Source of the DNA: an uncultured Acidobacteriaceae bacterium
GTDB taxonomy: Bacteria > Acidobacteriota > Terriglobia > Bryobacterales > Bryobacteraceae
Assembly (NCBI GenBank): GCA_963758245.1
Contig: CAVWUV010000014.1
Span: forward strand, 127,729 to 191,728
DNA length: 64,000 bases
Direction: 5' to 3'
Positions 14,340 to 22,187 of the stretch are shown one piece after another; positions within the stretch are counted from its first letter, which is position 1; every line of letters begins with the position of its first letter. A program made the position numbers and the translations under genes. Under the pieces are notes generated by a model. It saw nothing but the letters and a program-made list of their open reading frames with translations, was not told the DNA's origin and made no database searches.

Positions 14340-16860
<2,521 letters not shown>

Positions 16861-18027
16861 ATGCCCCTAAACTGATAGACACAAAGCCCTTACGATTGCA
16901 ATAACCACGAAAAATCACTTCATCTCTATCCGCTAGGAAGACCCGCTTCTCGCCGTTTGCGAGCATCAACGGCTCGCTGCCTTTCCAAGTCAGTTCCAGC
17001 AAACAGCCGCGATTCCGTTTCTCTGGGCCAGAGACCGTGCCGCTGCCGATCAAATCACCGGGGCGAAGGGGACAACCGTTGGAAGCGTGGTGCGCCACCA
17101 TCTGGGCCAGCGTCCAATACATATCTTTGAACGACCCGCGGCTGATCAGCGCCGGTTCCGGCATTGACGCAGATCGCAGCCAGACCTCGAGCGTGATATC
17201 GAACGCACCATGACCCTGCACTTGTAGATACGGAAGCAACGGAAGATCGTGCTCCCTGGAAGGCACGCGGAACGGCTCCAAAGCTTCTATGGTGACCATC
17301 CACGGGGAGATTGAGGTCGCGAAGTTTTTGGCCAGAAACGGCCCAAGCGGCTGGTATTCCCAGCGCTGTATGTCACGCGCTGACCAATCATTCAATAAGC
17401 ACACACCGGCGATGTGCTCCTCGGCCTCTTCGATTGGAATCGGCTCGCCCATCGCGTTGCCTGGACCAAGAAAAGCGCCGATCTCCAATTCGTAATCCAG
17501 TTCTTTCGAAGCCCCGAACCGGCCTTCGCCCAATTGTCCAAGTGGACGCCGCACTGGCGTTCCGCTCACGACAATAGAAGACGACCGGCCGTGATACGCA
17601 ATCGGCACGTGCTTGTAGTTCGGCAGGAGCGGATTATCGGGGCGGAACATCCGGCCGACGTTGGTGGCGTGATCGATAGATGCATAAAAGTCCGTGTAAT
17701 CACCGATCAAAGCCGGTAACATCATTTCGCATTCCGACTGCGCCAACAGTGTTCGCTTGGGCGAGCCTTTCGCGAGAGCTTTGCTGACCTCGCGACGAAG
17801 ATCACGGCGCTGGGTTGCCGGGATCGCCATGTAGCGATTTAGCGTGTCGCCGGAAAGCCACGACTCCAGGCCGAGTATGAAATCGCCGATCGCCACCCCA
17901 AGACGCGGACGGGAATCATCTTGCGTGCGAAAAACGCCCAATGGCAGATTCTGGATCGGAAAATCGCAACCCGGACGATTGGCGGATTCCACCCAGCTCT
18001 CTAAGCCAGGATCGTGAGTTTCGTCGA

Positions 18028-18756
18028 TCATAGCCAGCCAAGTGCATGCAGATCCGAAAGCGGCTCTTCGAAGGAACATGAGCCGAAGGAGTGGGCGAAC
18101 TGCCGCCGCGCTGCTGCGATTTCGCCCTCTTCCAGCGCTCTGTCGCGCCAGTGCGCTTGGTCGTCAAACCAAAATGCAGCCGGATCTGTTTCGGCCAGAA
18201 TGCCCTCAATCTTTCGCTCTCCTCGCCATGCGAAAGCGGCTGCTATGAACACGTTGATGAAGCCGTGCATAGTTGCCGATTGGATGGGATGGTGCAAGCC
18301 GGCAGTCGCCTTGAAGGGCAATCGCCGGTCCGCACACGCAGTTATAAACGCCGCAACAGTGTCGACTGAAGGGACGGCTTCCGGAACGAGACCGCCCGTA
18401 CGGATTTTGGCCATTGCACCCGCTTTCTTGATCTCGTCAAGTTGGTCGATTGATGCTTCGCAGTAGATGGGCTTCGCGACGGCGACAATCTTCTTCGACT
18501 CGACAGTCGCAGCTCGATGGTGATCCGAATCGCTCAAGACTGCAAAGGGCCAGTCGAATCTCACCGGCGACAGCTTGTCGAGCTGTGCCGCCGATATGAC
18601 AAACCGCCCGAGCATCCAGGCGTGCTCCTCGGTTTGATAGCGGCTGTAATTAGAAACCGCGGCTTCGCGCGAAAGCGACGCTGGCGGAAACATGCCCGCG
18701 TAATCGATCAGATTTTGAAGCAGCGCGCGGAGCGCGGGAGCTACGAGTCGAGCCAC
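18028..18756 (-). CDS. Hypothetical protein of unknown family, encoded between hmgA and fahA
   Basis: 242-aa ORF with a GTG start. It overlaps the hmgA stop by 16 nt and the fahA start by 4 nt (ATGA). Its codon usage looks like that of its neighbours. Distinctive segments are FKATAGLHHP and FGSCSFEEPLSDL. I recognise no family. Confidence 0.65.
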   Translation of the reverse strand: MARLVAPALRALLQNLIDYAGMFPPASLSREAAVSNYSRYQTEEHAWMLGRFVISAAQLDKLSPVRFDWPFAVLSDSDHHRAATVESKKIVAVAKPIYCEASIDQLDEIKKAGAMAKIRTGGLVPEAVPSVDTVAAFITACADRRLPFKATAGLHHPIQSATMHGFINVFIAAAFAWRGERKIEGILAETDPAAFWFDDQAHWRDRALEEGEIAAARRQFAHSFGSCSFEEPLSDLHALGWL

Positions 18757-19898
18757 GAGAGATAGTAATCTTTGTCTTCGATGTCTACGGCCTCTTTACT
18801 CACGTGTAATCCGCGGAAGGTGTCCATCATCACCGCGAGCTCGTTTGTCTGCTTCTGACCGAGAGATGCCTCTGTGCGGCCCGGCTGCGGCCCGTGCGCC
18901 AATCCGTCGGGATGAAGCGTAATCGAGCCGTATTCGATTCCCTTTCGGCTCATGAATTCTGAATTCGCATAGTACAGCACCTCGTCCGACATGACGTTCG
19001 AATGGCTATACGGAGCAGGAACGGCTTCGGGATCAAAATCGTACGGCCGCGGGCAGAAGGAACAGACTACGAAACCGTCACTCTCGAAGGTCTGGTGGGT
19101 GGGCGGCGGGAGATGGAAGCGGCCAACTCGCGGCTCGAAATTGTGAATGTTGATGGCCCATGGATAGTAATACCCATCCCAGCCAACCACGTCGAAAGGA
19201 TGATACGCGAGCGACATTTCTGTCAGGCAGTTTGCCTTCTTGACGATCAACTTGAACTCGCCCTTTTCGTCGTGTGTTTCGAGATTTTGAGGACAACGGA
19301 TGTCGCGCTCTGAGTACGGGCTGGCTTCGGTCAATTGCCCAAACTCATTCCGGTAACGTCTAGGCGTCCGGACATACCCTGCACTTTCGATGATCAGCAG
19401 CGCCCGTTTTTCCGACGCAAAGCGGTAACGATGCAGGATTCCGTGAGGAATGATCAGATAGTCGCCGCTCCCGAACACGATGCTGCCAAACGGCGATTCG
19501 AGAACACCTTCGCCTTCGCTGACGTACACGATCTCGTCGCCTTGCGCATTGCGGTAGAACTCAGAAACTTCTCCGGCGGGCCGGACGAGAGACATGGAGA
19601 CATCGTTGTTGAATAGCAGCGGCACGCGATCGACGATGGCATCGCCCGCTTCCGCCACTTGTTTGGTTTGAAAATGCCTGTGACGAAGCGGCTCTGAAGG
19701 CGCAGCCTCCCACTTGAGCTCTTTCAAGCTGTGCAGAGCGCGCACTGCCGTGGGTCGGCGTACGTGATAGAGCAATGAAGATGGCCCAACAAAACCCATG
19801 TTCCCCATCAGCTCTTCGGAATACAGCTCGCCAGAGGGTTTGCGGTAGATCTTATGTCGTTTGGAGGGTATCTCTCCGAGTTGATGGTAAACGGGCAT
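18741..19898 (-). CDS. hmgA: Homogentisate 1,2-dioxygenase
   Basis: 385 aa with a cupin-type core (GDYLIIPHGILHR). The N-terminus YHQLGEIPSKRH...EELMG..GF is typical of the short bacterial HmgA form. The pathway context includes hppD and fahA. Confidence 0.88.
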   Translation of the reverse strand: MPVYHQLGEIPSKRHKIYRKPSGELYSEELMGNMGFVGPSSLLYHVRRPTAVRALHSLKELKWEAAPSEPLRHRHFQTKQVAEAGDAIVDRVPLLFNNDVSMSLVRPAGEVSEFYRNAQGDEIVYVSEGEGVLESPFGSIVFGSGDYLIIPHGILHRYRFASEKRALLIIESAGYVRTPRRYRNEFGQLTEASPYSERDIRCPQNLETHDEKGEFKLIVKKANCLTEMSLAYHPFDVVGWDGYYYPWAINIHNFEPRVGRFHLPPPTHQTFESDGFVVCSFCPRPYDFDPEAVPAPYSHSNVMSDEVLYYANSEFMSRKGIEYGSITLHPDGLAHGPQPGRTEASLGQKQTNELAVMMDTFRGLHVSKEAVDIEDKDYYLSWLDS

Positions 19899-19938: not shown

Positions 19939-21067
19939 TTGGTCCCACCCGATCTCTTAGTTCCGCCCCATATTCTGTCTCTCCGGCCCTATGAACCTGG
20001 GCTGAGTGCACAGCAGATTAAAGAGCAATTCGGGCTCACTCGAGTCATCAAACTGGCTTCCAATGAGAATCCGCTCGGGTCATCGCCGCGCGCAATCGAA
20101 AACGCGCAGAAGGCTCTTCGAGACATGTCCCTCTACCCGGATGGCGGTGTTGCGCTGCGCCGGAAGCTTGCTGAACGGTTTCAGCTCAAAATCGAGAACG
20201 TCATTGCGGGCGCCGGAAGCGAGGGCATTATGGCCAACATAGTCCGAACCTTTCTTTGCGACCACGATGAAGTCCTGACCACCGACGCTGCGTTCGCAGG
20301 ATTTCAGGTGCTGGCTCGCGGGCGCGGCGTGGCGTACAGGACTGTGCCCTATCGTGACTGGCGTTACGATCTGGAATCACTCGCCGAACGCGACGACCGA
20401 CCGAACCAAGCTCATCTATCTTGCCAACCCGAATAATCCAACCGGCACATTCTTTACTCGTAAAGCGTTTGAAGATTTCCATCGGCGAATACCGGAACGC
20501 GTTCTGATCATTCTGGACGAGGCCTACTTCGAGTTCGCCATGGGCGAGACGTCTTATCCCGACTCGATGCACTATCGGTTTGATAACGTCATCACGCTCC
20601 GCACATTTTCAAAGGCTTATGGTTTAGCGGGAGCTCGTGTTGGATATGGCTTCGCGCATGAGAACTTGATATCCATGTTGCTGAAAGTGAAGCTGCCGTT
20701 TGAGCCGAGCGGGATCTCAACGGCTGCGGCGATGGGCGCTCTCGATGATCGTGAATTTCTGGAGGAATCGATAGCAAACAACGCTCAAGGGCTGACTTTC
20801 GTCATCCGATCTATTCGTGAATTGGGATTTCACGCTGTTTCTTCCGCAGCCAATTTTGTGATGATGGTTCTGGATACGGAAAGCCACGCTCTGGAAATTT
20901 TCAATCAGCTCCTGAGACGCGGAGTTATTGTTCGTCCATTGAAGGCGACGGGCCTTCCACATTGTCTTCGGGTGTCGATCGGCACAAAAGAAGAGAACGA
21001 GATATGCGTTGAAGCGCTCGGCTTCGTGCGTAAGGAGATTGAAGCGAATTATGCCCCAACTTACTGA
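19939..21067 (+). pseudogene. Class I/II (HisC-type histidinol-phosphate/aromatic) aminotransferase interrupted by a +1 frameshift
   Basis: The N-terminal part is in frame 1 (19939..20436: LRPYEPG, IKLASNENPLG) and the C-terminal part in frame 2 (20354..21067: TKLIYLANPNNPTG, TFSKAYGLAGARVGY with the PLP lysine). Homology switches frame within 20386-20399, inside the slippery GACGACCGACCGA. Removing one nt gives an ORF of about 375 aa. Confidence 0.8.
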
Positions 21068-22187
21068 ACAGGCGGAAAAAACATCCGCAACCCAAACTGA
21101 TTTTCTTCCCATCCACGGGACCGATCACGTGGAGTTCTACGTTGGAAATGCAAAGCAGGCAGCGTACTTCTATCGGGCCTGCATGGGTTTCGCTCTCGTC
21201 GCCTATCGCGGACCGGAGACTGGCACGCGAGACCGCGTTTCCTATGTTTTGGAACAAAACAAAATCCGATTCGTGCTGACTACCCCACTGCTGCCCACAG
21301 GCGAAATTGCGGACCACGTGCTTCGGCATGGCGATGGTGTGAAATCGATCGCGCTTTGGGTGGATGAGGCCGAGTCCGCTTGGCACGAGACGACCGCCAG
21401 AGGCGCTCGCGGCATTCAGGCGCCTTTCACCATGGAAGACGAACGAGGAAAAGCGCGCCTCTCCTCGATCGGCATATACGGCGACACAATTATCACGTTT
21501 GTTGAGCGTCGTGATTACCGGGGCGCGTTTCTCCCGGGATTCAGGGAAGTGACCGGTCACGACCGAATCTCCCGGCCCGCCGGCCTCCTTTACATTGACC
21601 ACATGGTCGGAAACGTGGGCTGGGGAGAGATGAACACCTGGGTCGATTTTTACGAGCGCGTAATGGGATTTCGGATGTTCAAACATTTCGACGATCAGGA
21701 CATCTCGACTGAGTATTCGGCTCTCATGTCGAAAGTCATGACGAACGGCAACGAACGAATCCGGTTTCCCATCAATGAGCCCGCTGTGGGCCGCCGTAAG
21801 TCGCAGATCGAAGAGTACCTGGATTTCTACGGTGGTCCGGGCGTGCAACATATTGCGATGGCCACCCATAACGTCATCGAAAGCGTGACAAAGCTGCGCG
21901 ATCAAGGCGTCGAGTTTCTTTCCATTCCTACTACCTATTACGAAGAGTTGACTGCGCGTGTCGGCAAGATCGACGAGCCAATTGACGAGCTGGCAGACTT
22001 GGGCATTCTGGTGGACCGCGATGATGAGGGATACATGCTGCAGATCTTCACGAAGCCGGTCGAAGACAGGCCCACGCTGTTCTATGAGATCATTCAGCGG
22101 AAAGGCAGCCGCAGCTTCGGAAAGGGCAATTTCAAGGCATTATTCGAAGCCATCGAGCGAGAACAGGCGCGGCGCGGGAACCTATGA
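21051..22187 (+). CDS. hppD: 4-hydroxyphenylpyruvate dioxygenase
   Basis: Two VOC/glyoxalase-type modules (HVEFYVGNAKQAAYFY; IDHMVGNV). C-terminal signature IFTKPVEDRPTLFYEIIQRKG...FGKGNFKALFEAIE. The start is taken at the ATG at 21051 of ORF 21009..22187. Confidence 0.9.
   Translation: MPQLTEQAEKTSATQTDFLPIHGTDHVEFYVGNAKQAAYFYRACMGFALVAYRGPETGTRDRVSYVLEQNKIRFVLTTPLLPTGEIADHVLRHGDGVKSIALWVDEAESAWHETTARGARGIQAPFTMEDERGKARLSSIGIYGDTIITFVERRDYRGAFLPGFREVTGHDRISRPAGLLYIDHMVGNVGWGEMNTWVDFYERVMGFRMFKHFDDQDISTEYSALMSKVMTNGNERIRFPINEPAVGRRKSQIEEYLDFYGGPGVQHIAMATHNVIESVTKLRDQGVEFLSIPTTYYEELTARVGKIDEPIDELADLGILVDRDDEGYMLQIFTKPVEDRPTLFYEIIQRKGSRSFGKGNFKALFEAIEREQARRGNL

Follow-up and report, generated by a model that had tools for sequence, protein, structure and literature searches.

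A candidate glutathione-independent maleylacetoacetate isomerase gene between hmgA and fahA in an uncultured acidobacterium

The 64,000-nt stretch of DNA analysed here (positions 127,729 to 191,728 of contig CAVWUV010000014.1, assembly GCA_963758245.1, from an uncultured Acidobacteriaceae bacterium; hereafter the window) carries a gene, termed X in the following, that lies between hmgA and fahA of the homogentisate pathway and encodes a member of an unannotated, predicted TIM-barrel-like protein family. With moderate confidence, we infer that the product of X is a glutathione-independent maleylacetoacetate cis-trans isomerase, the middle enzyme of hmgA-X-fahA. On this assignment, HmgA would open homogentisate to 4-maleylacetoacetate, X would flip the cis C2=C3 bond to trans to yield fumarylacetoacetate, and FahA would split the latter into fumarate and acetoacetate. 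The homogentisate pathway is a textbook route, defects of which cause alkaptonuria and tyrosinaemia, and to our knowledge no gene has been assigned to its isomerase step outside glutathione-producing organisms. Because the X family travels with fahA across many phyla that lack the glutathione-dependent isomerase, it is the best candidate for this missing step.

If the assignment is correct, a function could be given to a family of thousands of members that so far has neither a domain model in Pfam or NCBIfam nor a structure, and a gene would be identified for glutathione-independent homogentisate pathway activities that have been known for decades. Pathway reconstructions would then be corrected for Acidobacteriota, Bacteroidota, Gemmatimonadota, Planctomycetota and others, perhaps with one family supplying the third step of tyrosine/phenylalanine catabolism in most glutathione-free bacterial phyla, and cis-trans isomerase chemistry would be extended by a fold new to it and perhaps also by a new mechanism. 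New in the present analysis are the quantified exceptions to the association, a paralogous pair with a second type of fumarylacetoacetate hydrolase (FAH), a carrier genome without glutathione synthetase and a minimal 242-aa form of the protein.

Gene X and its pairing with fahA

Gene X occupies positions 18028..18756 on the minus strand (242 aa, GTG start), and hmgA, X and fahA follow one another consecutively on that strand. The upstream hmgA (18741..19898, minus strand) encodes a short-type homogentisate 1,2-dioxygenase-like cupin of 385 aa; its TAG stop codon lies at 18743-18741 and the GTG of X at 18756, which gives an overlap of 16 nt. The downstream fumarylacetoacetase gene fahA (16823..18031, minus strand) begins its homology at the ATG at 18031-18029, and the TGA of X is at 18030-18028, so that the two genes share an ATGA overlap. 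The FahA product has FAA_hydrolase_N and FAA_hydrolase domains and matches TIGR01266 at 1e-151 (505.6 bits against a cut-off of 375.3). An initial annotation of this DNA had placed a 242-aa open reading frame (ORF) with these two overlaps between hmgA and fahA; the coordinates and the junction sequence confirm it, and both motifs that it quoted, FKATAGLHHP (residues 148-157) and FGSCSFEEPLSDL (residues 224-236), are found in the translation. A gene-caller version of X (P0002) starts at the internal Met48 and is 195 aa long. Since that start would remove the motif D18-Y19-A20-G21-x-F-P-P, which lies upstream of Met48 and is invariant in the X family, the 242-aa GTG-start reading is right. At least 7,296 homologues were found among 8,000 candidates scored, and the family comprises 4,898 clusters at 50% identity with E ≤1e-3, 1,296 of them with E ≤1e-30; given these relatives, the ORF is, on sequence grounds, a genuine coding sequence.

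The gene order around X was compared in a scan of one genome per species, which returned at least 594 X loci, and the best 80 were kept. Among the 76 of these with downstream room, X is immediately followed by a same-strand fahA in 64, and the gap between the aligned stretches of X and fahA is ≤40 nt in 51 of those 64; in two further loci fahA is convergent, and in one it lies at a distance of 4 kb. The loci belong to Acidobacteriota, Gemmatimonadota, Planctomycetota, Cyanobacteria, Bacteroidota, Verrucomicrobiota, Latescibacterota, Vulcanimicrobiota and others. At least 27 of 79 loci encode an HmgA, of either architecture, upstream of X, and the remainder have varied genes there; hmgA-X-fahA is the commonest gene order. 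No member of the GST (glutathione S-transferase) family was found among the neighbours on either side of the X-fahA pair in the related loci. In the window and in loci L002-L065, the HmgA slot upstream of X is filled either by a short type of ~385 aa or by the canonical type of ~435 aa, which are mutually 22-27% identical.

A natural fusion of X and FahA was found in genome G166, where a single ORF of 780 aa (L111:1532-3874, G166:C11) joins the two through a linker of ~25 residues; it is also recorded as a 771-aa protein (P0272). No further fusion was seen: the 80 loci contain neither an X-FahA nor an HmgA-X fusion, and the long open frames in them were rejected as high-GC artefacts in other frames. 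A search with the G166 fusion returned overwhelmingly stand-alone FahA proteins. The pairing extends to a divergent X subfamily of ~60 clusters, 25-30% identical to window X and including Bdellovibrionota. In all four loci examined (L089:3421-5393, L116:6001-7924, L117:5586-7463 and L118:6001-7943), the divergent X and a gene for an FAA_hydro_N_2 plus FAA_hydrolase protein of ~323 aa are coupled, either overlapping by ATGA or lying 2-3 nt apart; the sole close solved relative of this hydrolase type is 3lzk, an uncharacterised structural-genomics protein. As X is coupled to two FAH architectures, the X-FAH pairing is older than the split of these hydrolase types. The pairs in L116-L118 have conserved housekeeping surroundings (RsmE-like methyltransferase, ZapA, YmdB and TyrS), and hmgA and hppD are not nearby.

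Co-occurrence was assessed in 201 Acidobacteriota genomes and in 151 genomes of Bacteroidota, the phylum of a Chitinophagales carrier, with X scored as present at E ≤1e-10 and FahA by TIGR01266. Among the Acidobacteriota, 34 genomes have X, 38 have FahA and 32 have both, and maiA exceeds its cut-off in a single genome, which has neither X nor FahA; among the Bacteroidota, X is present in 27 genomes and FahA in 57, all 27 X carriers have both, and maiA exceeds its cut-off in none. The association between X and fahA gave Fisher p values of ~1e-28 (Acidobacteriota) and ~3e-14 (Bacteroidota) in tests that ignore genome relatedness and hence show no more than that it is strong. Over the two samples, fahA is present in 59 of 61 genomes with X and in 36 of 291 without it, and no maiA above cut-off occurs in any of 71 X-carrying genomes (these 61 and 10 from other lineages). 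The co-occurrence that the initial annotation had suggested looking for is therefore seen, X being found almost exclusively in fahA-carrying genomes, never with maiA, and the X-fahA pair being kept across many phyla.

The window genome itself, which is 97.8% complete, contains no maiA match at E ≤1e-3, no GST and no glutathione synthetase gene gshB (TIGR01380). Its lone GST_N_3 match is an 83-aa glutaredoxin-like protein, and its lone DinB/MDMPI-like match is a sub-threshold YfiT-like protein encoded beside a rhamnose isomerase gene. The earlier statement that no GST-like ORF is present thus holds across the whole genome, and the maiA gene elsewhere that had been named as evidence against the candidate was not found at the above threshold.

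Predicted fold and putative active site

No NCBIfam (E ≤1), Pfam (E ≤10) or PDB-sequence match was obtained for X searched singly, and a PDB profile search was also empty, in agreement with the initial annotation, which could assign it to no family. Every source name among the X matches listed is 'hypothetical protein', and in the literature library searched we found no paper describing the X family or a non-GST maleylacetoacetate isomerase. The family to which X belongs is without described relative, domain model or solved structure. In a conservation alignment of 337 sequences (268 from the main family and 69 paralogous), D18, Y19, E86, E100, K117, R119, G121-G122, K149, T151, G153, H155 and G165, together with N168, R217, G225, S226, C227, E231 and P232, are invariant or nearly so, and the family motifs DYAG-x-FPP, E100, K-x-R-x-GG, FKATAGLHH and FGSCSFxEP are all present in the window protein. 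At 242 aa, window X is short for the family, whose representatives have a median length of 295 aa; the variable segment between strands 3 and 5 is largely missing from it, as is the 12-residue 'HPLTYxxxxP' loop after HHP. Judged by the alignment, it is a minimal form of its family. The possibility of a degraded copy was rejected, since window X keeps all invariant residues and 80 of 338 family members have the same short loop. Elsewhere in the family, X matches in two adjacent pieces were seen in three genomes (G154:C55:18466-19351, G277:C48:141291-142250 and G305:C3:211382-212353), which may be frameshifted or decaying copies or may reflect sequencing errors.

The AlphaFold2 model of X, built on a 78-sequence alignment (pLDDT 97.3, pTM 0.93), consists of eight beta-strands arranged in a TIM-like barrel, with a small beta-meander inserted at residues 195-209. 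A Foldseek search of the model against the PDB returned TIM barrels alone, with a best E of 0.01, TM scores of 0.36-0.44 and 10-15% identity; the neighbours include DHPS 3tr9, RPE 3cu2, IMPDH 6kcf, TIM 1w0m and FabK 7l00, and also DHODH. The predicted fold class is clear, namely a TIM-like barrel without a solved relative. The DSSP string of the model puts D18, E86, E100, R119, T151 and C227 at or just past the C-terminal ends of strands 1, 4, 5, 6, 7 and 8, where TIM barrels usually have their catalytic face. K117, K149, H155 and R217 also lie at C-terminal strand ends, and G165 and G225 at strand ends. Strands 6 to 8 each lead into a Gly-rich loop (KIRTGG, TAGLHH and FGSCS). In the model, four invariant cationic side chains, a histidine and a single invariant cysteine look like a set suited to a small polyanionic substrate and to thiol chemistry. 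A regulator or a transport accessory, which the initial annotation had named as structural outcomes against its candidate, was rejected, as X has an enzyme-like invariant pocket and neither a DNA-binding domain nor membrane segments; the model shows a TIM barrel of enzyme-like character whose pocket is polar, cationic and conserved.

A covalent mechanism of addition, rotation and elimination at Cys227 is proposed on the basis of the conservation pattern, by analogy with the role of glutathione in MaiA and with maleate isomerase. The cationic pocket at the C-terminal mouth of the TIM-like barrel (K117, R119, K149, R217 and H155) would hold the dianionic substrate, and the invariant Cys227, right after the last barrel strand, would attack the activated double bond as a thiolate. 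Rotation about the single bond so formed and elimination of the thiol could then follow, which is the job of glutathione in MaiA, with D18, Y19, E86 and E100 as putative acid/base groups and a lysine as a possible polariser of the 4-oxo group. For X, we infer the substrate and the reaction as well as the part played by Cys227. The candidate-isomerase interpretation put forward by the initial annotation is supported by the lack of a maiA or GST gene elsewhere in the genome and by the enzyme-like model, and strongly by the comparative genomics; the specific activity is a prediction. More tentatively, X may represent a class of cis-trans isomerases not recognised before, one with a TIM-like barrel that would need no free thiol, would use its own Cys227 covalently and would rely on Lys/Arg as the electron sink.

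These features set X apart from the isomerases already known. The zeta-class GST known as MaiA, HmgC or GSTZ1 (EC 5.2.1.2, TIGR01262) catalyses the same step as that proposed for X, and a thiol is likely the nucleophile in both. However, X is modelled as a TIM-like barrel and not as a thioredoxin-fold GST with a helical domain, it has no sequence relation to MaiA and no match to the maiA equivalog or to a GST N- or C-terminal domain, and the thiol would be its own Cys227 rather than the cosubstrate glutathione, in carrier genomes that lack maiA. The gene for MaiA, too, clusters with hmgA and fahA, as in hmgABC of Pseudomonas putida (Arias-Barrau 2004, as cited in PMC4457819). For the analogous maleyl-to-fumaryl step of the gentisate pathway, a non-GST route is provided by the mycothiol-dependent maleylpyruvate isomerase NagL/Ncgl2918 of the DinB/MDMPI family, encoded beside an FAH hydrolase gene (PMC3937715). 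Such thiol-dependent non-GST enzymes are a precedent (PMC3937715). The DinB/MDMPI enzymes are four-helix bundles with a metal site and require a free low-molecular-weight thiol, whereas X is a predicted barrel and has no PF11716 or TIGR03083 match. BagL is a further non-GST maleylpyruvate isomerase, dependent on L-cysteine.

Maleate cis-trans isomerase, of the Asp/Glu racemase superfamily, is independent of cofactors and uses an enzyme cysteine as covalent nucleophile, and serves as the model for the proposed role of Cys227; it differs from X in its two-domain fold, its two catalytic cysteines and its substrate, maleate, whereas X is a predicted barrel with a single invariant Cys and no Pfam match. 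The phosphate-binding and FMN-linked TIM barrels share with the X model a (beta/alpha)8-like barrel and catalytic residues at the C-terminal strand ends, a generic likeness without sequence relation; among them, IMPDH also employs a cysteine nucleophile. X is not a member of the zeta-GST, DinB/MDMPI or maleate isomerase families, with which it would share the reaction type.

Exceptions and alternative readings

Several observations weigh against X as the pathway's isomerase. Among the 95 FahA-carrying genomes of the two samples, 36 (~38%) have neither X at E ≤1e-10 nor maiA, and at least 7 of these 36, from which 26 loci were fetched, have hmgA beside fahA with no gene in between. On account of such genomes, with hmgA and fahA and with neither X nor maiA, the pathway apparently can run without X. 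A profile search with all filters off revealed no hidden X within 5 kb of fahA in the X-less loci, and as for a displaced isomerase, no GST or DinB gene is enriched beside fahA in the 26 loci. The families that are enriched there are SHMT, HU-type DNA-binding proteins (in syntenic Flavobacteria) and Flavin_Reduct, the last of which accounts for 5 of 93 neighbour ORFs, all within two genes of fahA, the four inspected lying after it. A layout without an isomerase gene exists inside the window's own class: the X-less acidobacterium at L082:8627-9379 (G083:C14) has an operon of hppD, phenylalanine hydroxylase, hmgA and fahA genes in this order, with no gene between hmgA and fahA. In fahA-carrying Bacteroidota without X and maiA, a flavin-reductase-like gene of ~300 aa is often seen downstream of fahA, directly after it (L094:3620-4519 and L095:5721-6632), within 50 nt of it (L096:5851-6774) or past one small gene (L097:6204-7100), and might mark an alternative handling of the maleyl intermediate.

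The converse exception, X without fahA, was also encountered. Five Obscuribacterales-like genomes (G361-G364 and G206; loci L004, L005, L007, L008 and L039) have X, at 50-56% identity to window X, and no TIGR01266 fahA, their X lying beside histidine kinase genes; G060 has a divergent X and no fahA. These Obscuribacterales-like proteins are the closest relatives of window X outside Acidobacteriota, closer than most acidobacterial copies, which suggests lateral transfer and possibly another role. Genomes with fahA and neither gene, and genomes with X and no fahA, weaken a simple model in which X stands in for MaiA, and the X-less and MaiA-less fraction in the two phyla points to one or more further solutions or to direct hydrolysis. 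A possible way out for the genomes without X is offered by the direct hydrolysis of maleylacetoacetate to maleate that is reported for Bacillus in work cited in PMC4457819; for B. anthracis, the same paper states that the maleylacetoacetate isomerase gene 'cannot be identified' (PMC4457819). Two further points bear on the chemistry: the gene context appears compatible with X acting either before FahA, on maleylacetoacetate, or after the hydrolase, on maleate, and the phosphate-binding and FMN barrels found as nearest neighbours of the model may point to a cofactor or to a different chemistry.

The last point leads to the possibility, which we regard as improbable, that X carries out a non-isomerising reaction on a pathway intermediate, for example a cofactor-dependent reduction to succinylacetoacetate, which FAH-type hydrolases could cleave, or a tautomerase or hydratase reaction. 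The nearest, though weak, structural neighbours (FabK, DHODH, IMPDH, RPE and DHPS) are phosphate-binding or FMN-linked TIM barrels, the KIRTGG, TAGLHH and FGSCS loops resemble phosphate-binding loops, and the flavin-reductase-like gene within two genes of fahA in 5 of the 26 X-less loci hints at redox chemistry. However, with TM ≤0.44 and E ≥0.01 no specific cofactor site can be claimed from these likenesses, X has no nucleotide- or flavin-binding Pfam signature, and the canonical pathway needs no such step.

It also seems unlikely to us that X works outside homogentisate catabolism, whether in detoxification or on some other anionic metabolite; in that case, its position beside FAH genes would reflect co-regulation or a shared ancestry of the pair. 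Such a role would suit the five Obscuribacterales-like genomes and G060, which keep X without a TIGR01266 fahA and beside unrelated genes, as well as the Bdellovibrionota-like pairs embedded among housekeeping genes away from hmgA and hppD, and the several Bacteroidota genomes in which X and fahA are kilobases apart or on separate contigs. It is at odds with the distribution of fahA (59/61 genomes with X against 36/291 without), and the same-strand adjacency with tiny gaps across more than eight phyla, together with the fusion, would be difficult to account for if the two genes had no pathway in common.

The least likely of the alternatives weighed here places X after the hydrolase: FAH would hydrolyse maleylacetoacetate to maleate and acetoacetate, and X would turn maleate to fumarate, by means of its own cysteine, or to D-malate. 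A single invariant cysteine in a cationic pocket would suit maleate too, X is tied to the two FAH architectures more tightly than to hmgA, and the many FahA-carrying genomes without any known isomerase fit an FAH that accepts the cis substrate, as does the direct hydrolysis to maleate reported for Bacillus (Crawford 1976, as cited in PMC4457819). Against this, the partner FahA scores high as a TIGR01266 equivalog of the trans-specific fumarylacetoacetase of eukaryotes, and the commonest order hmgA-X-fahA mirrors the canonical order of reactions.

Neighbouring genes of the tyrosine route in the window

The initial annotation had described the window as encoding the tyrosine route with an aminotransferase, HppD, HmgA and FahA, and this stands for the most part. 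FahA and HppD are unambiguous; hppD (21009..22187, plus strand; TIGR01263 8.7e-135) encodes 4-hydroxyphenylpyruvate dioxygenase in a divergently transcribed unit. HmgA is of the short type, with a Cupin_2 domain and weak matches to HgmA_N (1.7e-8), HgmA_C (0.002) and TIGR01015 (5.7e-14, far under the cut-off). The aminotransferase gene (19939..21067, plus strand) did not hold up as an intact gene: it appears in the ORF list as two overlapping frames (19939-20436 and 20354-21067), and a single-frame translation of the region contains 13 stops. The split is due either to a frameshift or to a sequencing or assembly indel, and intact aminotransferase orthologues adjoin hppD in loci L003 and L013. 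About 40 nt separate the aminotransferase start from the divergent hmgA start at 19898. On the other side of the gene cluster, an ORF for a 168-aa membrane protein (16354-16860, minus strand) shares up to 38 nt with the 3′-end of fahA when the longest start is taken.

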